Shown: piece by piece, positions 3,274-35,565 of the stretch
Layout: every line of letters begins with the position of its first letter
Numbering within the stretch: position 1 is the stretch's first letter
Virus record (IMG/VR): IMGVR_UViG_3300044714_000169
Location: 1 to 50,547 of that record
Strand: one strand, 5' to 3'
From: a virus
Lineage: Duplodnaviria > Caudoviricetes
Length of the DNA stretch: 50,547 nucleotides
Translations under genes and position numbers: made by a program
The notes under the pieces: model-generated
Database searches by the model: none
What the model was told of the DNA's origin: nothing
What the model saw: only the letters and a program-made list of their open reading frames with translations

Positions 3274-3536
3274 TGTGACTTCCTCGACGCGTAGATTATC
3301 GCGGCCTGGTCGACCGAAATGACATGTAGTCCGGTGGGGATATACCCCAAGTTATGAGTAACGGTAAACTCAGTGTTAGCTGATGAAGGTGTTTCGGTTT
3401 CAAGCCAGTAACCTTGGATATTCTGTCTTCCGCTAGCTGGAGAACCAAACTCGATTTTATTAACTCCATAGGTGATCAACTTCTGTAGTATAATTCGTGG
3501 ATCGACTCCCTTTCGGATATTATCCTTAATGATCAT
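3204..3536 (-). CDS. Small tail/virion protein
   Basis: FTVTHNLGYIP motif common in tail-associated beta domains; position after nozzle genes. Confidence 0.55.
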   Translation of the reverse strand: MIIKDNIRKGVDPRIILQKLITYGVNKIEFGSPASGRQNIQGYWLETETPSSANTEFTVTHNLGYIPTGLHVISVDQAAIIYASRKSQWTSNQIFLKANVASVNLQGFVI

Positions 3537-4966
3537 ACATTCTCCACCTTCTCACCCCTATCAGCGAAATGGGGGGTGAACCCGGTTAGAGAACAGATCC
3601 CTTGACCTGGGGGTTGGTTGTTAGGTAATTTCAACATGAGTATAATTAACTCTCCGGTCGCTTCGATATCAAAAAACGCGGTCTGGTCTTTTCCATCAGC
3701 GGCAATCGAACCGATGTTTATCGAACTGGTTTTGGTATCAATTATCGGAGCGTTACCTCCAAATCCACCCGATCCGATCCCCCCTTCCGGCCCAAACGGA
3801 GCGAATTGGGGCCGGGTAGTAGTGGCGGTTAGTTCCAGAGCGCAGATTCCTAAATCTTCGTAAAACACCTCCAACCTCATTAACGTCTTTTCCATTCCCG
3901 GCATATCCCAAAATGGTTCGTTGAATATCAACGTAGCAGATTGGTCTGTTCGGCTGCTAGGTAATGTATCAGCTTTGTAAGAAGTTCCAGAGTTGGTTCC
4001 AAACGCTAATACTAACCCGGTACCCACCAACGGATTGTTGGATACTAACGGAACGGCTGATGCGGTTACCGGGATATTTAAACTCGGAACAGAGCTGTTG
4101 TTGGTGACGGTAATGGTTGCAGATGTCGGTCCGTTCTCTTCATGATTATAACCGATTATAAAGCTGGCTCGGCCGAGTGGAGGGATCGTTACCGGTAGAT
4201 TAGTTGTTAACACTACCCAGTTAGGATCGCTGGTTGTAATCGCGGTGATAGTGATACTACCTGATGAATTGGGGTTGTATAATGTTAGAAGGTCTGAGTC
4301 ATATAGAGTTAGCAAACCAGGTTGGTTGGTAGAGGTTACGAGCGCGGGGATGGCGGACCAGGGAGCCAACCCGGTGGTGGGTACGTTGTAGCTCAGAGAA
4401 AGGTATCCCCCAGTCCCTAATGAGCCCCCGACAACTGCTAAGATACTATAACCAGCAGGTGCATCAGGAATACTAATCTGCATTAACTGACCACCGCCAC
4501 CATATCCACTACTTCCATGACCCAAATAAATCGGGTCTTGCAGAACTATTGTTGCTACGTTACCAACTTCCGAAGCGGAGATAATCACCGCGCTCCGGGG
4601 GACGTCGGTAGGAAAAGCGTTATTACGAATAACGGTTAACCCAGTTGCGAACAGCGCGCTTAACTGTATTACGTAGTTGCCGACTTCGGTGTTAATTGTT
4701 AACGTACCCGGATAAGTCCCATCAACACCTTCGGTAATACTGAGATTTATCTGGACCGTTTGGTTTTTTAGAATGTTTCCGCCACTAAAACCCGACTGGC
4801 TCCAGCCTGGTCCGGTCAGTGTAACCGAAGTGACGATTACAAAACCCTGATACGCGGTTAGGCTAACCGTTGACGTTAGGGTTGATCCCGCAGCCGCCGG
4901 CCCTATACCAACATTGTCTGGATTCACCAACAAATACGAATTGACTGGCGGTCGTTGTCCTGGCAT
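3533..4966 (-). CDS. Tail protein: Ig-like (ASH/choice-of-anchor D-like) domains plus nozzle-like C-terminal domain
   Basis: Beta-sandwich repeats (GTYPGTLTINT; LPVTIPPLGRASFIIGY...SATITVTNN); C-terminal WDMPGMEKTLMRLEVFYE resembles the C-terminal part of podovirus nozzle proteins. Confidence 0.5.
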   Translation of the reverse strand: MPGQRPPVNSYLLVNPDNVGIGPAAAGSTLTSTVSLTAYQGFVIVTSVTLTGPGWSQSGFSGGNILKNQTVQINLSITEGVDGTYPGTLTINTEVGNYVIQLSALFATGLTVIRNNAFPTDVPRSAVIISASEVGNVATIVLQDPIYLGHGSSGYGGGGQLMQISIPDAPAGYSILAVVGGSLGTGGYLSLSYNVPTTGLAPWSAIPALVTSTNQPGLLTLYDSDLLTLYNPNSSGSITITAITTSDPNWVVLTTNLPVTIPPLGRASFIIGYNHEENGPTSATITVTNNSSVPSLNIPVTASAVPLVSNNPLVGTGLVLAFGTNSGTSYKADTLPSSRTDQSATLIFNEPFWDMPGMEKTLMRLEVFYEDLGICALELTATTTRPQFAPFGPEGGIGSGGFGGNAPIIDTKTSSINIGSIAADGKDQTAFFDIEATGELIILMLKLPNNQPPGQGICSLTGFTPHFADRGEKVENV

Positions 4967-4967: not shown

Positions 4968-6080
4968 CTAACTCGTATAAATATTGTCTATGGAGCTGAT
5001 AAACCCGCTGCTGGCTTGCGTTGGCGCTTGGATCTTCACCCACGATTGATCGTCGTAGTGATAAACCCATAAGTTGGTAATTCCGTTGGCTTGAGGGCAG
5101 ATTAACCAGTATGATAAATAATCAACAGTGGGTGAGATTCTGCCAATCATAGTTGCACTAACTTGGCTAACAGAGTTTTCGACATCAGCGATTATCGACT
5201 TTTTCGCTGATCCGCCAATCGGATTTAGATTACTACCATCGAATGAATAGATGTCTTCTTCACTCCTAAACGCTGATTGAGTCCCCCAACTAGCTAGTGA
5301 GTAAGGGGTGTAAACTCCAACTCCCTTCGGGCCATTTTCGAAGCTCTGAATCAAGAATGGGATTGACGGATTACCAGTTGGAGACATTGTGGTAATCCCA
5401 TGTGATCGATAGATAAATCCGATGTTGTAGGCAACCGACCAACCCGAAATCTGGTCCTCAACTTCGGGGATATCAGTTGCACCAGACGACGGATCGATAA
5501 TCGGGTTCCATTCAGTTGGGTTGTTAATTCCACACCAACGAACTCTTCGAGGATACTGAACCGTGTTCTCAAACGTATTCAGCATGATTAATCGAGCGTC
5601 GAGCTTACCTAGAAAGAGACAACCACCGGGAACATCACCCGAATAATAGAAGTCAGGGTTTATCGCGATGTTTAGTCCGCCCCCGGTCCAGAAGGTTAAT
5701 GGTTGTAATCCTGCACTAAAGTATAACACGTTTTGATAGATTTCAATTGCCCAAGGGGTAGAAGCTGCTGGAACAAACGGGATCAGATTACTTGCGTCAA
5801 GGGGGATCCAACTAGACCCATTCCAATAGTTAAAATCGGTCGAGGTGATAGCGACCGTATGCCACCCACCAGTAACGTCTTGAAACGACCGCATCCGGAG
5901 GATTGGGTTGGTTGAAGTTACCGCGCCTAAATTGTTGAAGTTGAATCCACTTTGGATCCTACCTTTATTGATCAACCAGTTGGTGATTTGCTTAAACGAG
6001 GACGCCTTCGCCGAGACAGACGGAAGTCCATCTAACCAACCTCCCCAAGGAGGGCCGATTTGTGGTTTGCGGTATGGCAT
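4968..6080 (-). CDS. Tail nozzle/packaged-DNA stabilisation protein (P22 gp10/T7 gp12-like beta-propeller part)
   Basis: N-terminal PPWGGW and NWLINKGRI; YPRRVRWCGINNPTEW and GATDIP motifs; follows the adaptor gene. Confidence 0.7.
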   Translation of the reverse strand: MPYRKPQIGPPWGGWLDGLPSVSAKASSFKQITNWLINKGRIQSGFNFNNLGAVTSTNPILRMRSFQDVTGGWHTVAITSTDFNYWNGSSWIPLDASNLIPFVPAASTPWAIEIYQNVLYFSAGLQPLTFWTGGGLNIAINPDFYYSGDVPGGCLFLGKLDARLIMLNTFENTVQYPRRVRWCGINNPTEWNPIIDPSSGATDIPEVEDQISGWSVAYNIGFIYRSHGITTMSPTGNPSIPFLIQSFENGPKGVGVYTPYSLASWGTQSAFRSEEDIYSFDGSNLNPIGGSAKKSIIADVENSVSQVSATMIGRISPTVDYLSYWLICPQANGITNLWVYHYDDQSWVKIQAPTQASSGFISSIDNIYTS

Positions 6081-6838
6081 TATCCAGCCGTGTTGGTAAA
6101 GTTACGTCTCGGAGATCGAGGTTGAATCCCGTAGTCAACCTTAGGTGCTTGAGCTTGCCTACGAGTCATGATTTGACCGATCAACCCAGGTACGAATTTG
6201 TTGGTTAGAGGGACGGTAAAACCGAATAATAATTGTTGCAAGGCGGTGGCTTTTTCACGTTCCAATAATTCCGCGTGCCCCCGCATCTCCGCGCCATAAT
6301 CCAAAATCTCTAACCAATCGTACGGCAGTAAAATAGGAGTCTCACCAATATCCACCGCCGACTGACTGGGATCAAGAACGTTACCGCTGTCATCCAAGAT
6401 TTGAGGAAGTTGGTAATAATCGAGGATGTAGGGGTAACTTTGATCTGCATACGGAGCCAACCAGATAGTTTCATTCTGCGGGGCCCAGACTGACGGAGGA
6501 CCAGGCTCCTGAACATTAAACATTCGAACGTACTGCATGTCTTTAAAATCTGGTTGAAAAGTCGATCCGTCAGGATAGGTTAGAGTTATCGCGTCGATTA
6601 ACCGACAGTCGGGTGGGTAGGGGATGGAGCTTAAACTTCCCTGCGTTCCGGGCCCTAACGTTCCGGGGACGCTAACCTCCAACGTCTCTAACTGGTAAGA
6701 CATGCAGAGGTTGATATAGCTGTCACGGATCCAGCCCATCACCCTACTAACCGCGTTTGGAGCTACAACGCTAACCAGATCGGCACGGTTACCTAACACC
6801 GCCAATACTCTCGAAACTCTGTCGTTAAAGATCGCCAT
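6080..6838 (-). CDS. Head-tail adaptor (tail tubular protein A-like)
   Basis: GPPSVW...IWLAPYADQSY.YILDYY and PYDWLEILDYGA motifs typical of podovirus adaptors. Confidence 0.7.
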   Translation of the reverse strand: MAIFNDRVSRVLAVLGNRADLVSVVAPNAVSRVMGWIRDSYINLCMSYQLETLEVSVPGTLGPGTQGSLSSIPYPPDCRLIDAITLTYPDGSTFQPDFKDMQYVRMFNVQEPGPPSVWAPQNETIWLAPYADQSYPYILDYYQLPQILDDSGNVLDPSQSAVDIGETPILLPYDWLEILDYGAEMRGHAELLEREKATALQQLLFGFTVPLTNKFVPGLIGQIMTRRQAQAPKVDYGIQPRSPRRNFTNTAG

Positions 6839-6839: not shown

Positions 6840-7724
6840 TTAGTCGTGTACCGCGATACAGTTGATGGTTGTAAAATTGGCCGCTACCGCCGTTAACGCA
6901 GCAGTTTGTACGGTGATGGAAGTTCCAGATTTGGTTCCCGTTCCATCCATGCCTTGGATAATTGGGGCCCCACTAGTTGGTAAATCGCCAGTACAGCTAA
7001 CCGTATAGTTGGTATCAGCGAAGGGGGTATTCCAAGTTACGGTTGTGGAGCAAGTCGCAAATTGAGTAGCTGCTGTGGTACAGCCAGCCACACGTTTGGT
7101 TACGTTACACCCGAAACCGGAATCGTGCATGACTCCTGCAGCGCTGGTACCCCAAACACTCACAAGGCAGTGGCCAGCAGAAGTTGATCCCTGAGTGCCG
7201 CTGATTGCTAAGATAACTCCCGCCGCCGCTGTAGTACCCCCCTCTGCTAAGTCCGGGTAGGTAAATGTTGTGCTTGCTAGTAGAGACGAAACACCCCCAC
7301 CGGTGCGAGGCCCTGCTTGAGTAAACATTCCGAAGCCGTTGTTAAACTGTTCGAGAAAGAGGTTGTTGGTTCCGATAATTACCGAACCGTTATTTACCCA
7401 GAGAGAGTTTTCAAGTTCGAGCCCGGTACTCATCTCGAAAAATCCCGTGCAGCAGGAATCGGTTGAAACGTTAAGGATCGGTCCACTAACCGTACTAAGC
7501 TGAATACTGTTGAATAGGAAAGTTCCCGCCAAATAACTATCAAGGCAGGACCAATTTGCGTTAAGGAGGGGAACGTAGTTTTGGGTTCCTTGGGTGGGGA
7601 TGTTAAACCCGTAATTCGGGGTTACGGAGGGAGATGTAGAACAGGGAATCTGCGCGAATGCGGTCGCTCCGATCAGCAACAGCAAACTAAAACCGAAGCT
7701 CTTGAGGATCTTTGAATAGTTCAT
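6840..7724 (-). CDS. Tail fibre-like protein with predicted Sec signal peptide
   Basis: Start at ATG 7724: MNYSKILKSFGFSLLLLIGATAFA-Q. Followed by fibre anchor-like TPNYGFNIP...LLNANWSCLDSYL and C-terminal TVTWNTPFADTNYTVSC (gp53/H-lectin-like). Confidence 0.65.
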   Translation of the reverse strand: MNYSKILKSFGFSLLLLIGATAFAQIPCSTSPSVTPNYGFNIPTQGTQNYVPLLNANWSCLDSYLAGTFLFNSIQLSTVSGPILNVSTDSCCTGFFEMSTGLELENSLWVNNGSVIIGTNNLFLEQFNNGFGMFTQAGPRTGGGVSSLLASTTFTYPDLAEGGTTAAAGVILAISGTQGSTSAGHCLVSVWGTSAAGVMHDSGFGCNVTKRVAGCTTAATQFATCSTTVTWNTPFADTNYTVSCTGDLPTSGAPIIQGMDGTGTKSGTSITVQTAALTAVAANFTTINCIAVHD

Positions 7725-7929
7725 TTTTGTCGCTTTTTCCTTCCTGATTATCACGTAAAATCTCCGCGATTATCCTACTTCGGTAGTAGATTGACAGATC
7801 GTCGTAGCAACCATGGTCGCGGCACAGTTTTTTCCCTTGCTGCATAAAGAGCATGCTGATTGGGTGTTCGAACCCACATCGGTCGCAGACATCCCATTGT
7901 TCCCTCCAAATTCCGTGATGACGCGGCAT
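7687..7929 (-). CDS. Small Cys-rich (zinc-finger-like) protein
   Basis: CDRC...LCRDHGCYD; in operon order. Confidence 0.6.
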   Translation of the reverse strand: MPRHHGIWREQWDVCDRCGFEHPISMLFMQQGKKLCRDHGCYDDLSIYYRSRIIAEILRDNQEGKSDKNELFKDPQELRF

Positions 7930-7937
7930 TTTGATCC

Positions 7938-10900
7938 TTAATCAACTTGAGTCAGATGGCACGCTGCGTTGGCGCCAATGGTGATTGAGTTTGTTCCATT
8001 GGCCTTGGTTTGGAGTTGTAGCTGGGTTCCACTAGAAGTCGTACCGTTTTGAAGCTGAGCGAACACATGAACCATTTCTGTCGCAGCACCTGGAGCACCA
8101 GATGCGCCGGTTGCCGTTGCCCACGAAGCGGCGGCAAAGGTATTGATCTGGGCGTATGCGGCAGAAGCACCGATCGGGCCATCAGCGGCTAACGAATAAG
8201 AAGTTGGCGAGCCTGGGCCAGCAAACGTGAACGCCACCGTGGCGCTTGCTGCGAAGGTGATAGGGATTTGGCAGTCGAGTGTATAGTTCTTACTTGCCAC
8301 CAAGCTCCACGCCATTCCCGTAATGGTTGTGGCGGTTGCGGTGGTCTGCGCACTCATAGCGGTGGTTGTGAAGCCTACTGACTGATCGATGAGGCCTGCG
8401 GTCTTATTGCTGCTGTTGGATAAAAAGCCAGTGATTAAGAACTGACCGTCGTTTACGCAGCCAACTCCAATCGCCTGATCTCCACAGTACCGGTAAAAAA
8501 CATCTGAGACAGTCCCTGGAAGATTGTATCCAGTCACAAGATTAGAGATGACATTGGTCTGACATCTACCGGAAGTGTTACCGAAAATTTGCACCAGGCC
8601 AAGCAAGTTGGTATTCGCGTGCGTCATGGTGATGCAGGTATTGAGGTTTCCAGCGCCGAGGTTGAACCCATTCATTGCAAAGTCGCGGACGTTGACCAGC
8701 TCCAGAAGGTGGCCCGGTTGCTGAGTTCCTACGTCTACCCAAACTAGAGAGCCGGCGCCGTCCGCGCAAGTGGCCCCGGTGGTATAACTGGTACAGCCGG
8801 CGCCGCTCCACACTGGTTGCGTGGTTCCACTGGTACCAGCCGTTTGCACCATGTAGTAGTGGTTCGATGCGTTATTGGACGTGGGCTTGATCCAGTTCCC
8901 TGTCGTGGCGGGAACGGTGCCCAGATTGTATTGGGTGCTTGCCACCCAAGCCGGGGCTGTTCCTCCAATTTCAGTGTATCCACCAGATTCACGGTAACCA
9001 ATCAACGCCTGCGTGGGCGTTGTGTCGTTGGTCGATCCATCAGCACAATCCAGCGCTCCCTCTCCACTTGCACAGCCCGTGCCTAGCGGAGCACCGTCAA
9101 ACCCAACGTTGATGAGTTGAACGTTAACTGAGTTCCCACCCGGCCCGGTAACGAACTCGCGAGGTATGCATCCGGGGTCACCAGAGCAGGCGATACTTCC
9201 GTCCTCGAAAATTGCACTGTTGATGTTTCCTGAAGTTCCGCTGCTGGCGAGATAAAGCAGTATTGTGTTTGAAGCGCCTGTAATCGTGAAGTTTCTAACC
9301 AACGCTTGTCCGTTTACACCCACAACCGCCATCGCGGCCGTAAGAGTTGTCCCAGTGTTGCTTGGCTGGATTAAGATACCATCAGCGTCGAAGCGGGTTT
9401 GCGTGAAGTTCGAGCTTCCTGTTTGACCCGGCACACCCGCATTAGTGAAGAGATAGCGGTAGGTGGACGAGGCTGCGGAGCTGAGCAATGGATAAGACCC
9501 CGCCCCAAGATTCGATCCATGCGGGTTGGGCCATCGCAGAGTTCCCTGAGTACCCATCTGGAGGCAGTCAGTATTGCTATTCCCTCCAGTCGGACATATC
9601 CAATCTTCTCCCAGGTTTTCAAGCACAACGTGTTGGCCGTTGTTGTTGGTTGGTGAACTTGCCGCTACGCCAAACGTCGCACAAGGTGTGTTTGCTGCAG
9701 CCGTGGTGCAGACGTTGCGGCTTACTCCCATGTTGTCCCCAATGACGTGGCAGGGGATTGCGCTTGAGGCGTTGCACATGGCAATTAAAGCTGCGACTGT
9801 GGTTGTGCTTGAGTAGCACGAGGAGTGGATGACGTTGTTGAGGGGAAGGCAAGTTACCACGGCAACATTGAAAGTTTTCAACGTGGCCGTCAGACGTTCA
9901 AGGTAACTCGCGTTGTCACCCACATTAGCGATGTAGTTGGAAATGGAAACAGGTGCCCCAAAAGCGAGCTGCGCGCCGGAAGCGGAGGTAGCAGCGCCGT
10001 TATCCAGACCAATATAGGTATCGCTCGCATCGTTCGTGGGTCGCATGCCAGGGGTTGAGAGAGTCTTAGCTGAGTTGGAATCCACCAGCGTGATTTTGTG
10101 AGTCCCGGCGATCGAGCCGTTGAACTGCTGGCCTTGTTCGAATACCAGTCTTCCTTTGAGCCCGGTAGCGGCTGCACCACCAAAGCCTTCGTTTAACGTG
10201 AGAGCGCCTGGAGCCGAGCTGCTTCCGGTGTTATTCTCAGGACATGATACCCACGCTCCACCCGGACTGCTTACGCACTGCTGAGCAAAAAATCTTGGGG
10301 TAAGCGCCCCCCAACTGCTGACTGGTTCACTTACCGGGTTGGTGCTGTTGGCTACGTTGTCTCCAAAACGATCGAAGGAGACACCCGATGGAGAGGGCGA
10401 GGATCCTACCGAATCGGAGGTCTGAGTAGCGATGACGGAACCGGGCCAGAAGACTCCAGCACCAGTCCCATTGCCAAGCGCTGGGTAATAGGTTGGGGTG
10501 TTGGTTACCGTGTAGCTGGTCGTGTTTGTCGATGCGGTATCACTAAAGGAACAGATGTTTGCCGTTCCAACGGTTGAACAAGCTGCTCCGACAGTCAATC
10601 CAGTCGCTACTGAACCACAAGTGGTCGTAGAGCCCCCGCCGCAGATTGCGGTGTAGGGAGCAGGGCTATTCGCGGCGCCGGATGTTCGAATCACGTCGTA
10701 GGTAATGGTGCCTGTGGTTCCGAACTGCGGCCAGACAACCGGGATGCTCCCAGAACCGTTGGTCAGAGCGATGCCGGCGAGAAACGGGGCGCTAGTAATC
10801 GAACCGGTAGAGCTGTGCACGACGATATAGTAGTTATACTGGGTCGCGCCGGTATTCGCGAAGAGTGGCGCGGCTCCTACCGGACCAACCGAGTTCTTGA

Positions 10901-12800
10901 CCGAGGCAAAGCCGTTCTCAACGATCAGGCCAGCAGCCCCGATACCTAGAGGGTTGGAACTGCCGCATCCAGCCACTTCGAAGTACACGTTGTCCAACTC
11001 TACGTTGGGAACATTGCTGAAGACCCCGTTCGAACGGACACCAAATTGGGCCTGCGATTCGATTACGGAGTCAGAGATCCGCATCGTGTTGGCGTTTTGA
11101 TTGTCTACTCCGTTAGCCGCGCAACCAAGATTCATGTTGGTGTTTTTGATCCAGAGGATACCGGAGTTACCACCCCCACCAGCACCTTTAACCCCAACCG
11201 AGCAGAAAGTTGTGTCACAGTGCGACCAGCGGGAAGATTGGGTATCTAACCCGTCAATCACCGCCGATTGATCATTATCCACCTGAATCAAAGAACCAAA
11301 GGAGAATCCGCTGGTTTTGCTTCCCACCGGATTTGGGTTTGTTGAGTGGATATCGATAAAGTGGCTATGCTGTCCCGCCGACTCGATCATCGGGAAGTCG
11401 CAGTTATTACAGCCTGGTTGACCTGTAAAATTACTAATTGTCACGTCCCAGACGTAGTTTGGGAACGCCGTACTCCCGATGAAGAGGCAGGTATCAGCCA
11501 TTACGCAGGTAATGGTGGAACCGGCGAAATCCACGTGCAGGTAAGGCGACATTACCGTGACGCGAGCCTGCCAGGTATAAAGACCGGGGGGAATGACAAC
11601 CGAACCTACTTGATTATATTGAGGCCCCGATTGCGAGGAAGCGTTGATCGCCTCCTGGACTCCCAGCGAGGCGGAACCAATCGTAGTACCAGCCCCATGA
11701 CTGTTTGCCGCGGTAAAAGTGATTGTGCCTGCTGAGCCTCCAGCCTGCGTGCAGGTGCTGGAGGTGATCAACGCGGCTTCTGGAGTACCAACCCCCGAGA
11801 TATAGACGTAAGTTTGAGCGCTGTTGGCGGGGTAGTTTACCGCGTTAAAAGCGACTAGACCGCGCGGACAACTCGTCAAACTGATAACGTTGGTGCCACT
11901 ATTAACGGTGGCTGTTACCGCCCAGTTATCACTCGGCGAAGCGTAATAAATATTAGCGAAGTTGTTGACTGAAAACGTCGTTCCTACCGGCTGCACGACT
12001 GGTTGACTGGCTACAGGCGCGGTGGAAACGTTACCAGCAGCTGAACAACCATAACCCGAGCTGATACCTAAAGAGGATAAAACGTCGGCGGTCGGGCAAG
12101 GCGCGAGACTCATACTTAGAGTTCCCGTTGAACCGCCTCCTGAAAGCCCACTAGCTCCTGGGGTGTTGATACCCGTTAAGGTTCCACCACTACCAGGTGG
12201 GTTACCGCAACCCGTGCCATCCGCCTTCGCGTAGGTACCCGAAGCACAATTTCGTAGATCGATATTATTAGCGAATAGAGTAGCGTAAAAGTTGGTGAGG
12301 TTACCGATATTAAACACGTTGGAGGTTAAAGGCTGAAATCCCATCGTGACGATAGGGTTGGCGTTTAATAGAGTCCCAACCACTGGTTGTGGTTTAACCA
12401 GCGATAAACTACTCATGTTGGCAGAACTTCCAGTTAATAAGACGTTGGAGAGAGTGTTACTAACTCTACCCAACGGTGCGATGGTAACGGTATAAAGAGT
12501 GTTAGCGGGGACGATTTGGTCGTTACCCCAAACCTTACACGGGTTGCTGGGAGTTTGATAGTTAACGACGGAACCACTCGAATTGATCGCACACTTAGTG
12601 GTGGCAGGTGCCAGTGTAGAAGTCCCAACAATCGTGTAGTTGATTCCAGAGTTAAACGGGCTGATCGCGAATTGGACGTAACCACTGGTAGCTGGACTTC
12701 CAGCTGGATCGGTGATTAACCCAGTCACCGTGACAGACTGAGACCAACAAATCGGTAACGCGACCAACCATAAAAGCGCGGCGATGAAACGCGATTTCAT
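7938..12800 (-). CDS. Large tail spike/fibre-like adhesin (beta-helix regions, CBM-like module) with predicted signal peptide
   Basis: 1620 aa, Gly/Ser/Thr/Cys-rich. N-terminus MKSRFIAALLWLVALPICWS-Q; GVQEAINA...GSVVIPPGLY pectin-lyase-like start; PAWVASTQY...AGTSGTTQPVW module. Confidence 0.75.
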   Translation of the reverse strand: MKSRFIAALLWLVALPICWSQSVTVTGLITDPAGSPATSGYVQFAISPFNSGINYTIVGTSTLAPATTKCAINSSGSVVNYQTPSNPCKVWGNDQIVPANTLYTVTIAPLGRVSNTLSNVLLTGSSANMSSLSLVKPQPVVGTLLNANPIVTMGFQPLTSNVFNIGNLTNFYATLFANNIDLRNCASGTYAKADGTGCGNPPGSGGTLTGINTPGASGLSGGGSTGTLSMSLAPCPTADVLSSLGISSGYGCSAAGNVSTAPVASQPVVQPVGTTFSVNNFANIYYASPSDNWAVTATVNSGTNVISLTSCPRGLVAFNAVNYPANSAQTYVYISGVGTPEAALITSSTCTQAGGSAGTITFTAANSHGAGTTIGSASLGVQEAINASSQSGPQYNQVGSVVIPPGLYTWQARVTVMSPYLHVDFAGSTITCVMADTCLFIGSTAFPNYVWDVTISNFTGQPGCNNCDFPMIESAGQHSHFIDIHSTNPNPVGSKTSGFSFGSLIQVDNDQSAVIDGLDTQSSRWSHCDTTFCSVGVKGAGGGGNSGILWIKNTNMNLGCAANGVDNQNANTMRISDSVIESQAQFGVRSNGVFSNVPNVELDNVYFEVAGCGSSNPLGIGAAGLIVENGFASVKNSVGPVGAAPLFANTGATQYNYYIVVHSSTGSITSAPFLAGIALTNGSGSIPVVWPQFGTTGTITYDVIRTSGAANSPAPYTAICGGGSTTTCGSVATGLTVGAACSTVGTANICSFSDTASTNTTSYTVTNTPTYYPALGNGTGAGVFWPGSVIATQTSDSVGSSPSPSGVSFDRFGDNVANSTNPVSEPVSSWGALTPRFFAQQCVSSPGGAWVSCPENNTGSSSAPGALTLNEGFGGAAATGLKGRLVFEQGQQFNGSIAGTHKITLVDSNSAKTLSTPGMRPTNDASDTYIGLDNGAATSASGAQLAFGAPVSISNYIANVGDNASYLERLTATLKTFNVAVVTCLPLNNVIHSSCYSSTTTVAALIAMCNASSAIPCHVIGDNMGVSRNVCTTAAANTPCATFGVAASSPTNNNGQHVVLENLGEDWICPTGGNSNTDCLQMGTQGTLRWPNPHGSNLGAGSYPLLSSAASSTYRYLFTNAGVPGQTGSSNFTQTRFDADGILIQPSNTGTTLTAAMAVVGVNGQALVRNFTITGASNTILLYLASSGTSGNINSAIFEDGSIACSGDPGCIPREFVTGPGGNSVNVQLINVGFDGAPLGTGCASGEGALDCADGSTNDTTPTQALIGYRESGGYTEIGGTAPAWVASTQYNLGTVPATTGNWIKPTSNNASNHYYMVQTAGTSGTTQPVWSGAGCTSYTTGATCADGAGSLVWVDVGTQQPGHLLELVNVRDFAMNGFNLGAGNLNTCITMTHANTNLLGLVQIFGNTSGRCQTNVISNLVTGYNLPGTVSDVFYRYCGDQAIGVGCVNDGQFLITGFLSNSSNKTAGLIDQSVGFTTTAMSAQTTATATTITGMAWSLVASKNYTLDCQIPITFAASATVAFTFAGPGSPTSYSLAADGPIGASAAYAQINTFAAASWATATGASGAPGAATEMVHVFAQLQNGTTSSGTQLQLQTKANGTNSITIGANAACHLTQVD

Positions 12801-12804
12801 ATCT

Positions 12805-13224
12805 TCACCGTTGAATATAGGTTAGGTAACCTTGTGCGACTGGACTAGTACCGCCCGTAACCAAACAGAGCGCGTTACCGGATGCTGATTTTGTAAATTG
12901 CATACCAGCCGACATACTGATTAACGGGCTATTATTACCTGCCATTGCGCCGGTTAGAGTTGCAGTGACAGTACCACAGCTAGCGCTGGATCCGTATTCG
13001 AGTAGGTAGGTAGCAGCGGTCCCGGTTGCTGCGGTAAAGTTGAACCCGCAAACATAGATTGAGGTGGTACCGCTGATCGCGACTAATTGAGTGGTAGCGG
13101 CGGCAGATACGTTAATCGCGACACTTTGTTTTACTTCATTGGGAGCTAGACAAGGGTCTTGAATTCCCTGCCCGAACGCGACTGACGCGGTTAGTAGTAG
13201 AATCGACAGCAAAAGCTTTTTCAT
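12805..13224 (-). CDS. Virion-module beta-sandwich protein with predicted signal peptide
   Basis: MKKLLLSILLLTASVAFG-Q (ATG 13224; alternative GTG 13233); four Cys in the mature part. Confidence 0.65.
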   Translation of the reverse strand: MKKLLLSILLLTASVAFGQGIQDPCLAPNEVKQSVAINVSAAATTQLVAISGTTSIYVCGFNFTAATGTAATYLLEYGSSASCGTVTATLTGAMAGNNSPLISMSAGMQFTKSASGNALCLVTGGTSPVAQGYLTYIQR

Positions 13225-13229
13225 CTTGT

Positions 13230-13499
13230 TCACCTGATGTAAGCGCGGACTTGGCCGCTGGTTAGGGTTGCAATGTTGATCCCGTGAAATTTATCGGTTT
13301 TACCCGAGCGGACTTCTTCACCGTCAGCAGCGGGACCAGGATTCCAGATCACCTTCCCGAAACGGTCCTGAACTACGCAGGTTGCTCCCGCTGAATAACC
13401 CGACCATTCAAAATGATCGACGTAGATATCACCCAGAAATAAAACTCCGCCGCCCGCGGTGTCGAAATACCAAGGATTGGTCGTTAAGCTATTCGCCAC
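13230..13499 (-). CDS. Small putative virion protein
   Basis: 89 aa beta-rich; GGAGG RBS; structural operon. Confidence 0.55.
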   Translation of the reverse strand: MANSLTTNPWYFDTAGGGVLFLGDIYVDHFEWSGYSAGATCVVQDRFGKVIWNPGPAADGEEVRSGKTDKFHGINIATLTSGQVRAYIR

Positions 13500-14432: not shown

Positions 14433-15323
14433 CTATTGTCCCGGTGAGCCGTAAAAACCATGCCAGTAGGTTACACCCGGAATAAACCGGAAGTAAACAC
14501 TGTACGAGCTCCCCTTCGTCATGAAGTCGTCCTGACTGTCGAATTCGGGTTGAATCCTCCAGTAGAACTTCAGCGTATGGTCACGTTTATCGCCGAGGAC
14601 GAAAAAGTTAGTCGTCGACGTAAAATAGTGGTTGAAGAGTGGGTTCAGCCGTCCCTGCATCACGTTTACTTCGTTTGTACCCGTGTAGGGTTTATACGAA
14701 CTATGCAGGATTTCACCGGCTTTAAATTGCAGATCGACCGGCAATAAGACGTGAGCCGGCACCATCCGCTTTAAGAGACCACGCTCGTTTTTCATTTTCT
14801 CAAAAACGAGGATGGCTTCTTGCAAGCCGGTTACGCTGAAAGCAGCGTTGGTAGCTGATTGGTTGGTGTAGGTGCCACCTCCCAACAGGTTGTGGGTTGA
14901 ACAGAGAGTTCCACCATCAATCGTGGTTGTGGTGGTGAAAGCTCCCTGGATGATCCCGATCGCGTTGACTTCGAGTGTTTGACGGATGGAACCACCGAAG
15001 TCGGTCGAAACCTTCTTCATGACCCCGTATTGATCGTCATCCCACATTTCACGGGTAACTTGGAACCCCATGCCGTAGCTGACGGGTTGGTATCGGAGCG
15101 ATCCACCTTGGATGGGATCATCCATCTTAATTGGCTCGCCTTCAGGCTTGGTGGGGATGGCGCCAAGACCCGCGACGAGTTGATCTTCCTCGTAGGCTTT
15201 GGTGGTTGGGTGAACGTTGAATACCTCCGGGTATTCCTCCGGATGCATGGCAAGGTCTTCGTAGATAACGCTGAAGAGCCCGGCCGCAAGAAGCTGTGCA
15301 AACTGCCCTCTTGTAGTTGCCAT
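14433..15323 (-). CDS. Major capsid protein (HK97 fold, Mu gpT-like family)
   Basis: KAYEEDQLVAGLG..PTKPEG, YGMGFQVTREMWDDDQYG, LLPVDL, C-terminal WHGFYGSPG. Confidence 0.9.
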   Translation of the reverse strand: MATTRGQFAQLLAAGLFSVIYEDLAMHPEEYPEVFNVHPTTKAYEEDQLVAGLGAIPTKPEGEPIKMDDPIQGGSLRYQPVSYGMGFQVTREMWDDDQYGVMKKVSTDFGGSIRQTLEVNAIGIIQGAFTTTTTIDGGTLCSTHNLLGGGTYTNQSATNAAFSVTGLQEAILVFEKMKNERGLLKRMVPAHVLLPVDLQFKAGEILHSSYKPYTGTNEVNVMQGRLNPLFNHYFTSTTNFFVLGDKRDHTLKFYWRIQPEFDSQDDFMTKGSSYSVYFRFIPGVTYWHGFYGSPGQ

Positions 15324-31961: not shown

Positions 31962-32059
31962 ACGTCGACGGTCTTTGTCAAGAATGTCGAGATGGGGGTG
32001 ACGGAGTAGAAGAAGAAGAAGAAGAAGAAGAAGAACAGGAGGAAGAAGATGCCAGTTGA
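31901..32059 (+). CDS. 52-aa highly acidic Zn-finger microprotein
   Basis: AAGGAG RBS; MSTERSECEDC...LCQECRDGGDGVEEEEEEEEEQEEEDAS; (GAA)9 at 32009-32035; not in ORF track. Confidence 0.65.
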   Translation: MSTERSECEDCGLEFDPSELDVDGLCQECRDGGDGVEEEEEEEEEQEEEDAS

Positions 32060-32726
32060 CCGAGTTTGCCTCTACTCAGGCGGGCTCGACTCTACCACGC
32101 TTCTTTGGAGTCTGCGCCCAAACGTGAAAGCCCTGCTCATCAACTACGGGCAACGCCACGCGGTCGAACTCGTCCACGCAGCCAAACTCTGTAACACGTT
32201 CGGGATCGATTATGAAACCGCGGATCTGTCGGGGATCAACCGACTAATCCATAAAGGTAGTCAATCAGGTGACGAACTTCCCCCCGATGGTCACTACGCC
32301 GAGGAAACGATGAAAACCACCATCGTTCCCAACCGAAATTCTATCATGTTATCAGTGGCTGTCGGTTGGGCGGTAGCAACCGGGTGTAAAGAAGTTTACT
32401 TCGCCGCCCACGCTGGCGATCACACGATCTACCCCGACTGCCGACGTCAATTCATCGACAAGTTTGCTGAAGCGATGATCGAAGCTAACTTATGGAACCC
32501 AGTTCTAGTTCGAGCGCCATTTGTCCTGATGAACAAATCCGATATCGTGAAGCTGGCCAATAACCTGGGCGTCCCCTTCCAGATGACCTGGAGTTGTTAC
32601 AAAGGTGACAAAATCCACTGCGGTAAGTGTGGAACCTGCACCGAACGGCGGGAAGCATTCCAGCTAGCCGATATCAACGACACTACCGAGTACGAGTATA
32701 CCGGACCGTTGATGGAGGCGAAGTGA
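32049..32726 (+). CDS. queC: 7-cyano-7-deazaguanine (preQ0) synthase
   Basis: SGGLDS PP-loop, YGQRH, VPNRN, YPDCR, TWSCY...HCGKCGTC. Confidence 0.95.
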   Translation: MPVDRVCLYSGGLDSTTLLWSLRPNVKALLINYGQRHAVELVHAAKLCNTFGIDYETADLSGINRLIHKGSQSGDELPPDGHYAEETMKTTIVPNRNSIMLSVAVGWAVATGCKEVYFAAHAGDHTIYPDCRRQFIDKFAEAMIEANLWNPVLVRAPFVLMNKSDIVKLANNLGVPFQMTWSCYKGDKIHCGKCGTCTERREAFQLADINDTTEYEYTGPLMEAK

Positions 32727-32926
32727 GCATCCTCGACCCCAAAAAAATCGCCCAATCAATCATCTCCGACCCAACCAAATGGGTGTTGATGAAATGTGGG
32801 TTTTGTGGTAACGTCGATCACTGGCGAGTCTTAATCAACGTCACCGGGGTTGTCTGTTGGTGTCAAAAGTGTCAGAAGAAGTACAAACTTGAATCCGATT
32901 CCGGGGTAAAGGTGATAGATGCCTAA
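32723..32926 (+). CDS. Zinc-ribbon protein
   Basis: GTG start overlapping queC stop; CGFC...CQKC. Confidence 0.55.
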   Translation: MSILDPKKIAQSIISDPTKWVLMKCGFCGNVDHWRVLINVTGVVCWCQKCQKKYKLESDSGVKVIDA

Positions 32927-33677
32927 ATTTGCTACAGTCGCAATCGATAGTGTAGGAGAACTCGCTCGCCTCTTCTTCAGCAAGGACATGGGTAAGGGTG
33001 CAAACGACCGTGAAAAAATCCGCGCCATGCAGAACTATCCGGGCGCGACTGAACGGTTAAACATGCTCTGTCGATCGTTGAAACAAAAACGTGACAAGGG
33101 GGTGGAAATTGTCTTCACGGCTCATGAAGATATCGAAAAAGTATACGCTAGGGGCGGCGCCATGGCAGGGAAAGGTCAGGCACCTCCTGATCCAGTTGCT
33201 GTCAAGGGTTGGCCAGATGTCCCGGGTAAGAGGGCTCCCGACGAATTCTGCCGCGCGTGCGATAATGTACTCCGCGTACGTCGAGTTAATAACAGCCCCG
33301 CATGGATTGCTGCACGCGAATCAATCGGAGTTGGCGCGGATTACTGGGAGGTTAAAGACCGGTTTAACGGACCCGCAGTTAGAGCAGGCCTACTACCCGC
33401 CAACTACGAGGAGTTGAAAAAGTCCATCTGCGCGGTAAACCCAGGTTGGTGGCGAGCCCCTTACCTCTGGATGCTCTACGGCCCTTACGGAATCGGGAAG
33501 ACCCGCAGTTTGTTAAGCTTCCCCAAACCAATCTTCGTTATCGACCTCGACAAGGGAACAAAATCAATCACTGAGGAAGAAGCCAAATCCGCCCAAATGA
33601 CCATCGATCAATCTATCGACGTTGAGGAATCCGCCCACTACGACAGATTCTTCGGAATTTTGGAGGCAGCGTTCTAA
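32919..33677 (+). CDS. Sak4/AAA_24-like RecA-fold ATPase, circularly permuted
   Basis: Walker B TVAIDS at N-terminus, IVFTAHE, EVKDRF; Walker A GPYGIGKT and VIDLDKG near C-terminus. Confidence 0.8.
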   Translation: MPKFATVAIDSVGELARLFFSKDMGKGANDREKIRAMQNYPGATERLNMLCRSLKQKRDKGVEIVFTAHEDIEKVYARGGAMAGKGQAPPDPVAVKGWPDVPGKRAPDEFCRACDNVLRVRRVNNSPAWIAARESIGVGADYWEVKDRFNGPAVRAGLLPANYEELKKSICAVNPGWWRAPYLWMLYGPYGIGKTRSLLSFPKPIFVIDLDKGTKSITEEEAKSAQMTIDQSIDVEESAHYDRFFGILEAAF

Positions 33678-33678
33678 C

Positions 33679-33918
33679 TTGACCAAACTAGCCGACCACA
33701 TCCAAATCTCTCTCACGATTTCAGACGAACGTTGGCCTGAAATCACCCTCGTGGGTCAGCGGTCAGGGACCTGCGGAACCGCAGCCGCAATCACCCAAAA
33801 ACAGCAGTACGACCTAGCCTACGGAAAAGGCGAGGAAATGCTGCATAACCTGCTCAGACCGGCAGTCGACGAACTGATAAAACGTCGGAAAGGGCCCAAA
33901 TTAAACCCAGGAGAATAA
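33679..33918 (+). CDS. Hypothetical protein (start uncertain)
   Basis: Fills gap between ATPase and SSB. Confidence 0.45.
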   Translation: MTKLADHIQISLTISDERWPEITLVGQRSGTCGTAAAITQKQQYDLAYGKGEEMLHNLLRPAVDELIKRRKGPKLNPGE

Positions 33919-33919
33919 A

Positions 33920-34348
33920 ATGTTAAGAACAGAAGACATGTCGAAAGTTTCCGACTCCGACCTGATGAAGGAGGGTTGGTATCGGGTACGAATCAGTAAC
34001 GTGAAGGAAACCGACGATTCCGGGAATCAACTTCTCTCCAAAACCGGACAGGAACCAATCGTCGAGTTAACCTTGAAGGTTCAGAACGAGGGGGAGTTCT
34101 TCGGTCGTTCGTTTAAGGACAAACCCTCGCTGCAACCCCACGCGCTGTTCAAACTGAAGGCGTATTACAAAGCGGTTGGGTACGCGCCGGGACCGGAAGG
34201 CCACGATCCGGCAAAGCTGCTGGACGGGGAGGTTTGGGTATGGGTTAGCCCGGGTCAGTATCAGGGTCAACCGGTGTTAAACATCCCCCCGTATTCAATT
34301 CGTAGTTTGCAGGAAGGCGCCGGCGGTCCAGGCGGGAAGAAGAACTAA
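33920..34348 (+). CDS. DUF669-like single-stranded DNA-binding protein
   Basis: EGWYRVRI...SKTG...LTLKV..GEFFGR...ALFKLK; usual partner of Sak4. Confidence 0.75.
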   Translation: MLRTEDMSKVSDSDLMKEGWYRVRISNVKETDDSGNQLLSKTGQEPIVELTLKVQNEGEFFGRSFKDKPSLQPHALFKLKAYYKAVGYAPGPEGHDPAKLLDGEVWVWVSPGQYQGQPVLNIPPYSIRSLQEGAGGPGGKKN

Positions 34349-34452
34349 TGTGGGCGCTCGTGTTGGTAATTAGTTACGGGGCTTTAGTCGTTTGGCTAGA
34401 GTCCCGTAGCGAGCGCAAGGAGAGGGAGAGGTGGAGGAAACGTGGAGATTAG
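34348..34452 (+). CDS. 34-aa membrane-anchored peptide
   Basis: TAATG overlap; MWALVLVISYGALVVWL followed by a basic tail. Confidence 0.4.
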   Translation: MWALVLVISYGALVVWLESRSERKERERWRKRGD

Positions 34453-34981
34453 CAAGGAATTTAAATTTGAGGCGAGTCACGTTTTACCAAACCACCCGGG
34501 TAAGTGTTCCAGACTTCACGGCCACTCCTGGGTGCTGAGAGTTGCGGTAACGGGTGAAGTCAACCGCGAAACCGGCTTCGTGATGGACTACGCTGATTTG
34601 AAGAAGTGTGTCCAGCCGATCGTCGACGCCCTAGACCACCGTCATCTAGGTACTTTCGCACTACCAGGAGGGCAAGCCCCTTTGGCACTTTACCAGTGGA
34701 AGCCTGAAGGCCCCGATATCCACTACCCGAACGAGATCTACCCCAGCTCCGAAAATCTCCTTTGGTGGATTGCGGGACAACTTCACGGCCTCGACCTTTA
34801 TCGGATCAAACGATTCAAACAAGATCCTGAAATTCGGTCTTTCCGACCTGGCGAGATTATCCCCTTCGAAGAGCGCGAGAAGATCGACGTCATCAGCCGG
34901 TGGTCCTACATCCAATTAAACGAAACTTGCACCTCATCAGCAATCTTATGCCGAGACGAATTTAATGCCCTACAACGCTGA
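34442..34981 (+). CDS. queD: 6-carboxy-5,6,7,8-tetrahydropterin synthase
   Basis: FEASH.L, CSRLHGHSW, MDYADLK, LDHRHL, PSSENL, ET motifs. Confidence 0.93.
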   Translation: MEISKEFKFEASHVLPNHPGKCSRLHGHSWVLRVAVTGEVNRETGFVMDYADLKKCVQPIVDALDHRHLGTFALPGGQAPLALYQWKPEGPDIHYPNEIYPSSENLLWWIAGQLHGLDLYRIKRFKQDPEIRSFRPGEIIPFEEREKIDVISRWSYIQLNETCTSSAILCRDEFNALQR

Positions 34982-35288
34982 ACTGCAAATGCTGCGGGAA
35001 TTCTTCCTGTTGAACGCGCCACGAATACTCTGCGTGTTCTGCCATCTACCCATCTACCCACCTGAATTATCCAACCGATTAACCTTCGGGCATCGTCGCC
35101 ACACCAAAGTTCACTTTGCAAATTTCACGGTTCACCACGGAGACGGGAACCGTGAAAACAACACTGACCAGAATTTAAAAAACAGTCACAGCGACTGTCA
35201 CAAGCGTTATCACAAACAACTACTACTCCATGGAGGAACAAATGCCGTTAACAGCAGCCCAAATTCAACAGAAAGTCAACCAAGTTAA
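34965..35288 (+). CDS. HNH endonuclease-like protein
   Basis: CVFC...VHHGDGNRENN...NL...HSDCHKRYH. Confidence 0.75.
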   Translation: MPYNAELQMLREFFLLNAPRILCVFCHLPIYPPELSNRLTFGHRRHTKVHFANFTVHHGDGNRENNTDQNLKNSHSDCHKRYHKQLLLHGGTNAVNSSPNSTESQPS

Positions 35289-35550
35289 CAACTGGGTTAC
35301 CGCGATCGAGGGTAACGCCCACCAAACTGTCGCCTCGGCGATCAAGGGTATCGCCGGGATCATGGGAGATTTCGCCACCGATCTGTTGGAGGCGAAAGCG
35401 GCGTTGGCTGCGCTTCAGTCGAAGACACCCGGGCAAACCCCAGCACCGCCAACCAACCCAAATCCACCCGCAGCCAACCCGAACCCGAACCCAACGCCGG
35501 CACCGGCAGCTCAACCCAACGCGCAGACCCAACCAACAAAAACAGCCTAA
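35242..35550 (+). CDS. Coiled-coil protein with Pro/Asn-rich tail
   Basis: GGAGG RBS; PNPPAANPNPNPTP tail. Confidence 0.6.
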   Translation: MPLTAAQIQQKVNQVNNWVTAIEGNAHQTVASAIKGIAGIMGDFATDLLEAKAALAALQSKTPGQTPAPPTNPNPPAANPNPNPTPAPAAQPNAQTQPTKTA

Positions 35551-35565
35551 GGGAGGAGGTTCCAG

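Follow-up and report, generated by a model that had tools for sequence, protein, structure and literature searches.

Fiber-like proteins with predicted export leaders in the late operon of an uncultured podovirus, and their possible attachment to virions at lysis

IMG/VR record IMGVR_UViG_3300044714_000169, a stretch of 50,547 bp that was analyzed over its full length (hereafter the window), is a complete podovirus genome whose ends repeat each other over 127 bp. The phage is a soil podovirus distantly of the SU10 type; it is of the lytic type, and its host probably belongs to the Acidobacteriota. Between the capsid gene and the gene for an SU10-type adaptor lies a cassette that includes three genes, here called gpA, gpB, and gpC, whose cysteine-rich products begin with predicted cleavable signal peptides. 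The genes and features of this region are as follows.

14433-15323, minus strand: major capsid protein gene (PF25209, E 7.6e-14; phrog_371), the upstream border of the cassette.
12805-13233, minus strand: gpA, encoding 139 amino acids (aa) from an ATG at 13224 or 142 aa from a GTG at 13233; an 18-aa predicted signal peptide precedes a jelly-roll of about 120 aa with four cysteines.
13171-13224, minus strand: predicted gpA signal peptide, 18 aa, predicted cleavage between AFG and Q.
7938-12800, minus strand: gpB, 1620 aa, a predicted exported fiber- or spike-like protein with 42 cysteines in the mature part.
12741-12800, minus strand: predicted gpB signal peptide, 20 aa, predicted cleavage between CWS and Q.
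12261-12740, minus strand: gpB N-terminal beta-rich domain, about residues 21-180, directly after the leader; it matches P0114 and, more weakly, P0228, P0212, and P0214.
9858-12038, minus strand: gpB conserved core, residues 255-981, likely a right-handed beta-helix.
7941-9857, minus strand: gpB C-terminal region, residues 982-1620, lineage-specific and with paired cysteines.
7687-7929, minus strand: g80, a small cysteine-rich, zinc-ribbon-like protein encoded between gpB and gpC, without a leader; it has a BLAST match in the relative L006.
6840-7724, minus strand: gpC (open reading frame 6840-7754, ATG at 7724), 294 aa, a predicted exported fiber-like protein with 10 cysteines in the mature part.
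7653-7724, minus strand: predicted gpC signal peptide, 24 aa, predicted cleavage between AFA and Q.
7515-7652, minus strand: gpC N-terminal conserved module, TPN..P....N.N...LD, directly after the cleavage site.
6843-7112, minus strand: gpC C-terminal beta-sandwich of about 90 aa, residues 205-294, with four conserved cysteines, lectin-like.
6080-6838, minus strand: SU10-type adaptor gene (PF24175, 29.9 bits against a cut-off of 27), the downstream border of the cassette.
4968-6080, minus strand: conserved tail protein gene g370 (phrog_3287 'virion structural protein', E 5.9e-19), with BLAST matches to all nine adaptor-defined relatives described below.

The particle genes are of the tailed, cytoplasmically packaged type, with portal, terminase, and HK97-type capsid genes. 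On the minus strand, the late operon runs in the order terminase-like and portal genes, g204, capsid, g229, g88, g89, gpA, gpB, g80, gpC, adaptor, g370, and further genes, which makes gpA the fourth gene after the capsid gene and places the cassette in the late structural module beside tail genes. The portal gene has a match to SU10_portal (E 9.5e-6) that lies below the cut-off. Genes g89 and gpA overlap or are separated by 5 nt; the gap is 4 nt between gpA and gpB, 8 nt between gpB and g80, and 1 nt between gpC and the adaptor gene, whereas g80 and gpC overlap. Because neighboring genes overlap or lie 1-8 nt apart, gpA, gpB, and gpC are part of the late operon. None of the three proteins matched a Pfam, PHROG, or NCBIfam family (NCBIfam to E ≤ 0.05), and neither gpB nor gpC matched a Protein Data Bank (PDB) sequence by phmmer or hmmsearch.

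Each of the three proteins has an N-terminus with K/R, a hydrophobic core of 10-11 uncharged residues, small residues at -3/-1, and Gln at +1. Leaders were called with our own heuristic rather than SignalP. All three proteins pass it, and by eye they show the features of Sec/SPase I substrates, namely, a positively charged n-region, an uncharged hydrophobic h-region of 7-15 residues, and small residues at -3/-1. Among the 72 open reading frames (ORFs) of the window it is positive for six: gpA, gpB, gpC, a lipobox protein (43770-44135), ORF 45886-46227, and the capsid protein, whose weak score is probably false. Shuffling of residues 2-41 yields 2.56 expected positives per 72 ORFs. The heuristic alone is therefore weak proof, and conservation among homologs bears the main weight.

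Homologs in each of the three families keep the leader, and sequence similarity sets in exactly at the predicted cleavage site. For gpA there are 33 relatives (34 proteins at E ≤ 1e-3 counting itself). All 19 relatives that were aligned have a leader, and 16 of these 19 have Gln at +1 together with small -3/-1 residues (judged by eye, with two sites ambiguous). Across viral and genomic loci more broadly, a leader was found in 63 of 91 scored gpA-domain ORFs, with 10 more loci unscorable; most of the 28 ORFs without one either are long and have an uncertain start or are interrupted by the end of the locus. For gpB the count is 45 of 50 relatives, and the other five start with V or inside the mature part, as expected of truncated gene calls. 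For proteins with a gpC-type C-terminal domain it is 95 of the 149 listed, out of 547 representatives, with many of the 54 misses being fragments or borderline leaders (P0092, P0206, and P0223). Similarity begins at the predicted +1 position: gpB and P0069 align from the +1 Gln, and gpC and P0221 behave likewise. The original prediction that three late genes encode a signal peptide followed by Gln is borne out by these data, with the ORFs found where it placed them and the leaders conserved in homologs. As a separate observation, Gln at +1 is frequent outside Bacteroidota contexts, both in the gpA relatives (the 16 of 19 noted above) and in 29 of the 71 leaders that the heuristic called in viral loci. 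This points either to Bacteroidota among the hosts or to a comparable preference outside that phylum.

The public gpB entry (P0038, 1492 aa) begins at residue 129 and has thereby lost the leader and most of the N-terminal domain (12417-12800, minus strand). The region upstream of residue 129 is nevertheless coding, because residues 23-180 share 45% identity with P0114 (443 aa, with a signal peptide and a gpC-type C-terminus) and because P0069 aligns from the +1 Gln. Similar truncated calls may conceal the leaders of other metagenomic fiber genes.

These observations bear on a reading in which the hydrophobic N-termini do not act as cleaved export signals. Folding would then take place in the cytoplasm, as for ordinary fibers, with the helix serving as a membrane tether or being removed by a phage protease, or the true starts of the proteins would lie downstream. 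The start of the public gpB call, the false positives of the heuristic, and the relatives P0212 and P0214, which are leaderless and begin directly with a gpB-like N-terminal domain, would all suit such a reading, as would the 5 gpB relatives and 54 gpC-type proteins that lack a heuristic leader. P0212 and P0214 indicate that a leader is not obligatory for the gpB-type N-terminal domain. However, the public start is contradicted by the match to P0114, the five gpB misses are truncated calls, many of the gpC-type misses are fragments or borderline cases, and the recurrence of small -3/-1 residues with Gln at +1 in the gpA relatives also speaks against it. The cysteine content of the proteins, described next, likewise fits an oxidizing compartment. 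We consider it improbable that the leaders are not export signals.

Cysteine makes up 56 of the 1991 residues (2.8%) of mature gpA, gpB, and gpC combined, compared to 32 of 5929 (0.54%) in 17 other late proteins (odds ratio 5.3, Fisher p 2e-14), which confirms the earlier remark that the mature parts are unusually rich in this residue. The mature counts (4 in gpA, 42 in gpB, and 10 in gpC) are all even. Most cysteines of gpB occur in pairs 3-19 residues apart, and in the gpA family they swap pairwise as judged by eye: one subgroup has a DPC/YVC pair, and a second subgroup lacks both of these and has a local CX7-8C pair instead. The other gpA pair, C83 and C120, is invariant. Furthermore, among proteins of at least 300 aa in other viral loci, the median cysteine content is 1.67% for those with a signal peptide (n=71) versus 0.83% for those without (n=378; p 9e-10).

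Export and oxidative folding offer the simplest account of these data because the leaders are conserved, conservation starts at +1, and the cysteines are enriched, paired, and co-varying. The earlier proposal of export followed by disulfide formation in the periplasm is supported by the same features and by the even cysteine counts, and we regard export and oxidative folding of gpA, gpB, and gpC as very likely. It is from these sequence features that we infer export itself, cleavage, pyroglutamate formation, and disulfides. Folding outside the cytoplasm, with export leaders, would be unusual for adhesins of tailed phages.

What these proteins might do once exported is suggested by their modules. 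The gpC family comprises 547 representative proteins at E ≤ 1e-3, most of which match residues ~200-294. The N-terminal module of gpC was originally noted as a TPN...N.N...LD segment, a putative fiber anchor, directly after the cleavage site, and it recurs in that position in seven of seven aligned signal-peptide proteins, in which T, N, P, N, and D are invariant. A structure model of gpC is confident solely for residues 205-294 (predicted local distance difference test score, pLDDT, about 85-97). When this domain was compared to known structures with VIA-align, for which the stated background Z is 7-8, the matches included the C-terminus of the LKA1 gp49 tailspike (4ru4; Z 8.2, root mean square deviation [rmsd] 2.5, 82 residues), discoidin I (2w94; 8.2), the R1 and R2 pyocin fibers (7.6 for R1, 6cxb, and 6.3 for R2), Helix pomatia agglutinin (2ccv; 7.4), and the Pam1, phi297, AP22, KP32, and K64-1 spikes (7.1-5.8). 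Ten of the 15 best VIA-align rows are C-termini of tailspikes, tail fibers, or pyocin fibers (Z 8.2-5.4), and Foldseek ranks the same set first, at E ≥ 0.077. We consider the likeness of the predicted gpC tip to tailspike, pyocin-fiber, and H-type lectin C-termini a good lead; the Z values lie at the limit of background, and it is the coherence of the list that counts.

A search for the gpC C-terminal domain in 301 sampled genomes of the phylum of G002, an Acidobacteriota metagenome-assembled genome (MAG), yielded one convincing match (E 3.3e-10). A further 18 marginal matches (E 1.7e-4 to 9.8e-4), all but one in ORFs of ~405-424 aa, were taken as chance. A seven-row alignment of the domain finds six viral loci, three of them weak. 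Prediction of a complex of two adaptor copies with three copies of gpC residues 25-110 gave no answer (score 0.00, mark 0.32) and counts neither way.

The core of gpB (~255-985) has as its nearest named Atlas cluster PF13229 Beta_helix (score 0.92, 186 shared features), and 9 of its 10 best named Atlas matches belong to the PF13229 clan. The neighbor of one chromosomal gpB relative also encodes a protein that matches Beta_helix above the cut-off. The original prediction of beta-helix spike regions thus gains a lead from the Atlas clusters, whereas Pfam gave gpB itself no match. The N-terminal domain shared with P0114 also occurs in P0228, which has a gpC-type tip, and in the leaderless P0212 and P0214, with P0228, P0212, and P0214 matching more weakly. 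The sequence matches indicate that this distribution is one of mosaic construction. Toward the C-terminus, P0081 is the sole match to residues 982-1620 among the proteins compared, and residues 1479-1614 match a 231-aa ORF in genome G002.

The core (residues 255-981) shares up to 76% identity with signal-peptide proteins, ~1500-1700 aa long, that are encoded on megabase-size Acidobacteriota contigs (up to 1.85 Mb), some of which are named Candidatus Acidoferrum or Sulfotelmatobacter. These chromosomal relatives carry motifs that we take to be typical of fiber repeats. Their occurrence is sporadic, with the core present in 6 of the 301 sampled genomes. Loci L121, L122, and L124 contain tandem large signal-peptide paralogs, followed in L121 and L124 by a lipoprotein of ~220-230 aa. 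Ten ORFs of L121, the two large genes and eight small neighbors, were searched with Pfam. The small ones gave matches to a DSP phosphatase, an IS1595 transposase, and a zinc ribbon alone; Beta_helix was the one other family among the ten, and none was a phage family. The three loci share small upstream genes, namely, a zinc-ribbon gene of ~80-90 aa, a gene of ~75-80 aa, and several ORFs of ~200 aa (one of them DSP-phosphatase-like in L121), and the IS1595 transposase gene lies inside L121. This gene set is a recurring chromosomal island of unassigned role.

Such relatives raise the possibility that gpB and gpC are exported yet are never virion parts. They could be envelope fibers comparable to the mosaic adhesive trimer (MAT) fibers of Bdellovibrio, or free proteins that degrade or bind polysaccharides, and they could have been captured from, or be shared with, the host. 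Their site of action would then be the periplasm or the infected cell's surface, or they would work as soluble enzymes once the cell has lysed, with gpA as a small periplasmic accessory or a receptor mask. Possible effects include receptor stripping or masking, superinfection exclusion, keeping progeny off debris, and loosening of the matrix. The high identity of the gpB core to chromosomal proteins, the tandem pairs with a lipoprotein in surroundings that do not look like prophages, and the sporadic distribution of the core all suit this alternative, and the order of leader, conserved beta-rich N-terminal domain, fiber, and variable tip is also that of the MAT proteins as outlined in sections of PMC10769870. 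The original prediction had mentioned display by the infected cell as an alternative, and this option gains weight because the closest relatives of gpB are chromosomal signal-peptide proteins in non-prophage contexts. On the other hand, the cassette takes up ~6.2 kb, or 12% of the 50.5-kb genome, lies centrally in the structural operon at the spacing of translationally coupled genes, and the gpC tip resembles those of tailspikes and pyocin fibers. In addition, a periplasmic location alone does not place a protein on the surface of a diderm cell; no outer-membrane export signal was found in the three proteins, and NCBIfam gave no Por- or T9SS-type (type IX secretion system) domain.

The small protein gpA is modeled as an eight-stranded jelly roll (pLDDT 78). 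Foldseek found no PDB match to the model at E ≤ 1e-3, and sequence searches of the PDB with phmmer and hmmsearch gave two chance-level rows alone (E 0.017 and 0.022). A viral library produced 35 matches to the model at E ≤ 1e-3, mostly small uncharacterized Caudovirales proteins, and the nearest Atlas clusters are 100% viral. VIA-align returned a generic set at Z 9.3-6.3 that includes a virus turret, the KHP40 cement protein, Ena pili, XepA/YomS (Z 7.3 for the XepA C-terminal domain and 7.0 for YomS), TNF/C1q, and the Bd2133 tip; even the best values, 9.3 and 8.1, were taken as background level. Relatives of the gpA family number 129 in IMG/VR and 24 among species-representative genomes, mostly MAGs of Acidobacteriota and Alphaproteobacteria. 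Elsewhere, the domain forms the C-terminus of signal-peptide proteins of 250-450 aa at other genome positions.

Could gpA alone be a capsid cement or decoration protein? Its gene lies four genes after the capsid gene, and its model aligns with the KHP40 trimeric cement protein (Z 8.1, rmsd 3.6, 107 residues aligned) and with Pam1 and GP4 capsid entries (Z 6.7-6.8). However, these values are at background, and unrelated jelly rolls such as Ena pili, GOLD domains, XepA, and TNF/C1q score alike. A conserved leader and two conserved cysteine pairs also misfit a head that is assembled in the cytoplasm, and the C-terminal placement of the domain in larger signal-peptide proteins at other positions is likewise unfavorable. 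We therefore judge a cement function to be very improbable. The notions of gpA as a cement protein, an Ena-like pilin, or an XepA-like lysis factor were dropped beyond the status of leads, given that they rest on generic jelly-roll likeness at background Z.

A fixed gene pair of gpA and a giant signal-peptide protein was also considered. This arrangement is true for the window and for loci L071, L092, and L097 and fails in another group of gpA loci, in which the large downstream gene is leaderless and portal-like (by eye, from the N-terminus alone). The loci L071, L092, and L097 are Alphaproteobacteria prophage-like and perhaps siphovirus-type elements, in which the gene for a gpA-domain signal-peptide protein (253-446 aa) precedes the gene for another protein with a signal peptide (~2370-2390 aa). 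In L071, the pair directly follows tail genes and is itself followed by small membrane proteins.

Relatives of the phage were identified through the adaptor, using a three-row alignment (a single adaptor query found no locus). The nine adaptor-defined relatives share the portal gene, g204, the capsid gene, g89, g370, the adaptor gene, and an ATP-grasp gene. Three of them have cysteine-rich signal-peptide proteins after the ATP-grasp gene: L129 and L130 (856 and 162 aa; the 856-aa protein of each has 20 cysteines), and L133 (230 and 237 aa). ORFs of ~89 aa that are cysteine-rich and g80-like by eye lie near the capsid gene in L126, L129, L130, and L133.

More distant soil podoviruses provide further examples. 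In T7, the tail fiber gene gp17 is followed by the holin gene. The unrelated podovirus G305 (71% complete) has the order capsid gene, adaptor-like gene (258 aa), 1191-aa gene, three cysteine-poor genes, three signal-peptide proteins, and a 99-aa membrane protein. The signal-peptide proteins, of 1476, 685, and 580 aa with 45, 15, and 19 cysteines, respectively, lie after internal-protein-like genes and, by analogy with T7, occupy the gp17 slot. Genome G307 (44% complete) encodes a 226-aa protein that matches SU10_adaptor (E 3.3e-5, below the cut-off) and four signal-peptide proteins, 762-1580 aa long, whose genes surround a 167-aa gene that is lysozyme-like by eye. Three of these four share an N-terminal domain of ~165 aa at 47-60% identity and differ in the remainder, as in tailspike sets. 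In the parts of the G305 and G307 records that were read, at a limit of at least 150 aa per ORF, no other large fiber-like proteins were seen. PHROGs and Pfam recognized few proteins of G305, G307, and G308, and the adaptor, nozzle, and internal-protein labels are positional, save for the SU10_adaptor match of G307 and the portal of G308. Both the missing alternatives in G305 and G307 and the common N-terminal domain of the G307 paralogs argue against gpB and gpC being non-virion proteins.

Combining these observations, we propose the following sequence of events. The host Sec system would translocate gpA, gpB, and gpC, signal peptidase I would cut them to expose Gln, and the mature proteins would be oxidized in the periplasm to form many local disulfides. 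The resulting gpB would consist of its beta-rich N-terminal domain, the putative beta-helix core, and a variable C-terminal part, and gpC of its conserved N-terminal module, a variable middle, and a lectin-like tip, each having shed its leader. Built like tailspikes or tail fibers, these two proteins would most likely be receptor-binding or depolymerizing appendages. They would meet fiberless particles, assembled in the cytoplasm, once the holin opens the inner membrane, and would attach then or after lysis. The small jelly-roll protein gpA could be an exported accessory knob, a partner, or a receptor mask.

The virion-appendage reading is favored because both the modules and the gene positions are like those of receptor-binding proteins and because, in several soil podoviruses, the DNA that was read offers no alternative without a leader. 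The claims of the original prediction fare unequally: that these are virion parts is partly supported by the beta-helix lead, the lectin-like C-terminal domain, and the late-operon position, whereas docking on particles stays an inference. Attachment of gpB and gpC to virions at lysis is plausible, given that other soil podoviruses have proteins of this type alone in the fiber slot of the DNA read.

Several findings weigh against this proposal. Shuffled N-termini pass the leader heuristic at an appreciable rate, and the leaderless P0212 and P0214 carry the same kind of N-terminal domain as gpB. The closest relatives of gpB are chromosomal, and in six 20-kb chromosomal loci that contain them no capsid, portal, or terminase gene was recognizable by eye. 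Searches of 50,697 cultured-phage records with megablast and tblastn gave no match to gpA, gpB, gpC, or the region. Neither gpB nor gpC is present in any of the nine adaptor-defined relatives, and six of the nine lack a large signal-peptide protein in the stretch retrieved. A leaderless protein of the window, g477 (3533-4966), remains an alternative fiber candidate. Finally, the position of the gpA domain differs among unrelated phage contigs, in some of which it precedes portal-like genes, and an accessory gene fits such roaming better than a fixed virion part does. The absence of gpB and gpC from the adaptor-defined relatives and the varied positions of gpA-domain genes also favor a non-virion role, as do P. 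gingivalis prophages, which encode signal-peptide Q-rule proteins that portions of PMC10367356 read as envelope modifiers.

On balance, we hold the whole chain, from export to appendages that join the virion upon opening of the inner membrane by the holin, to be about an even proposition. Exported gpB and gpC that never join the virion, with gpA as an accessory or mask, are the main alternative, a credible one whose likelihood we place clearly below that. A more general statement is that a widespread set of soil podoviruses, with hosts that are probably Acidobacteriota, load Sec-made, periplasm-oxidized receptor-binding spikes onto finished fiberless particles at the holin breach and that the same modules circulate with MAT-like fiber genes of host chromosomes. 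We put this forward tentatively, as slightly short of an even chance.

Other parts of the genome were also noted. No near relative of the record was found among the 50,697 cultured-phage records with megablast, and the record has no tRNA genes. A possible lysis region lies at 43582-44564 (minus strand), where the ORF at 43770-44135 has a lipobox-type leader with Cys at the predicted +1 position and is flanked by a 63-aa ORF and by a 138-aa ORF with hydrophobic stretches. This may be a lysis cluster of the spanin/holin type, which would imply a diderm host; the candidates had no family match in PHROGs or NCBIfam. Genes for the synthesis of preQ0 (7-deazaguanine) are present at 32049-37984 (plus strand), with matches to QueC (E 2.5e-57), PTPS/QueD-like (E 4.2e-27), and GTP cyclohydrolase I (E 1.3e-37), and an additional ORF (35634-36362) is QueE-like by eye and has no Pfam match. 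The preQ0 genes suggest that the phage DNA is modified. A family A DNA polymerase fused to a domain of the uracil-DNA glycosylase (UDG) superfamily is encoded at 37986-40418. The ATP-grasp-like protein (44564-45877, minus strand) has a weak GARS_A match (E 5e-5, below the cut-off) and is kept at 34-36% identity in five adaptor-defined relatives, where its gene closes the late module. The ORFs at 1-774 and 46857-50528 (minus strand) are one gene across the 127-bp end repeat, with ~1,440 codons and zero cysteines. It probably encodes an internal or ejection protein and has no family match.

The assembly of tailed phages is described in textbooks as cytoplasmic, and a two-compartment route of the kind proposed here would be undescribed for these phages. 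Full-text literature searches found no published description of signal peptides on tailspikes or tail fibers (supplements, which lie outside such searches, may hold annotations), and literature on Acidobacteria phage tail fibers with a signal peptide included nothing on point, as judged from titles and the openings of abstracts. If the proposal is true, the fibers of uncultured soil phages need reannotation, since the public gpB call cut off the leader, and fibers intended for host-range or depolymerase work should be expressed in the periplasm rather than the cytoplasm. It would also change the view of how lysis timing and assembly are coupled. If instead gpB and gpC never reach the virion, they would represent a large unrecognized class of phage-encoded envelope fibers or enzymes that Acidobacteriota chromosomes also carry, with implications for how receptors are masked and the matrix is degraded in soil.

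In several respects, gpB and gpC resemble the tailspikes and fibers of podoviruses (P22 gp9, T7 gp17, SU10 gp12/gp13/gp16, and LKA1 gp49). They are encoded in a late structural module beside an SU10-type adaptor, gpB has a beta-helix-like core, the C-terminal beta-sandwich of gpC is like those of the LKA1 gp49, phi297 gp61, and Pam1 tailspikes, and both proteins share the modular build of a conserved N-terminal part and a variable remainder. Unlike known podovirus fibers, which lack a signal peptide, gpA, gpB, and gpC have predicted cleavable leaders before the N-terminal domain and are rich in cysteine. They also differ from known fibers in having no sequence match to a solved structure, a Pfam or PHROG fiber family, or a cultured phage.

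An adhesin that reaches its particle by way of the periplasm has a precedent in g3p of the filamentous phages, which has a signal peptide, acquires periplasmic disulfides, and becomes part of the particle outside the cytoplasm. The assembly of these phages takes place at the membrane and involves no lysis. The proteins proposed here would resemble g3p as Sec-dependent, disulfide-bonded virion adhesins, with the difference that the capsid is tailed and cytoplasmically packaged. The fibers of SU10 dock by their N-termini to the adaptor and nozzle, in the cytoplasm, according to passages of PMC9509320. Sec-exported and signal-arrest-release endolysins and PBSX XepA are likewise late phage proteins that cross the inner membrane before lysis. 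Unlike these proteins, which act in lysis, gpB and gpC lack lysin domains, and the similarity of gpA to XepA and YomS is at background.

The predicted SPase I (signal peptidase I) sites of gpA, gpB, and gpC all have Gln at +1, as do those of Q-rule proteins. Cleavage exposing Gln under the Q-rule is treated in PMC5837995 and PMC10653852, and the former describes the rule in its abstract as specific to Bacteroidetes; the terms used to look for other phyla did not occur in it. The named cellular relatives of our proteins are Acidobacteriota and Alphaproteobacteria MAGs and a few others, none of which is named Bacteroidota. The P. gingivalis prophages, as presented in portions of PMC10367356, carry five signal-peptide Q-rule genes of unassigned function, which are small, accessory, and in temperate phages. 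In contrast to the Q-rule proteins of temperate Bacteroidota phages, gpB and gpC are large, fiber-like, and encoded in the structural operon. The rumen phage report PMC5723332, in its pertinent part, merely counts signal peptides.

A parallel in overall layout is found among cellular proteins. According to sections of PMC10769870, Bdellovibrio MAT fibers have a signal peptide, a conserved beta-rich N-terminal domain of ~130 aa, a long fiber, and swappable tips, with tailspike-like, beta-sandwich, TNF-like, and lectin folds among the tips. The Bdello_MAT_N model (NF053851, NCBIfam) does not match gpA, gpB, or gpC at E ≤ 0.05, and the relative P0002 matches it weakly (E 6e-4, 19.6 bits versus a cut-off of 60). 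In layout, gpB and its chromosomal relatives are like MAT proteins in their predicted order of leader, N-terminal domain, fiber, and tip, whereas gpA, gpB, and gpC are encoded in the late operon of a virus and the MAT proteins in the chromosome of a predator.

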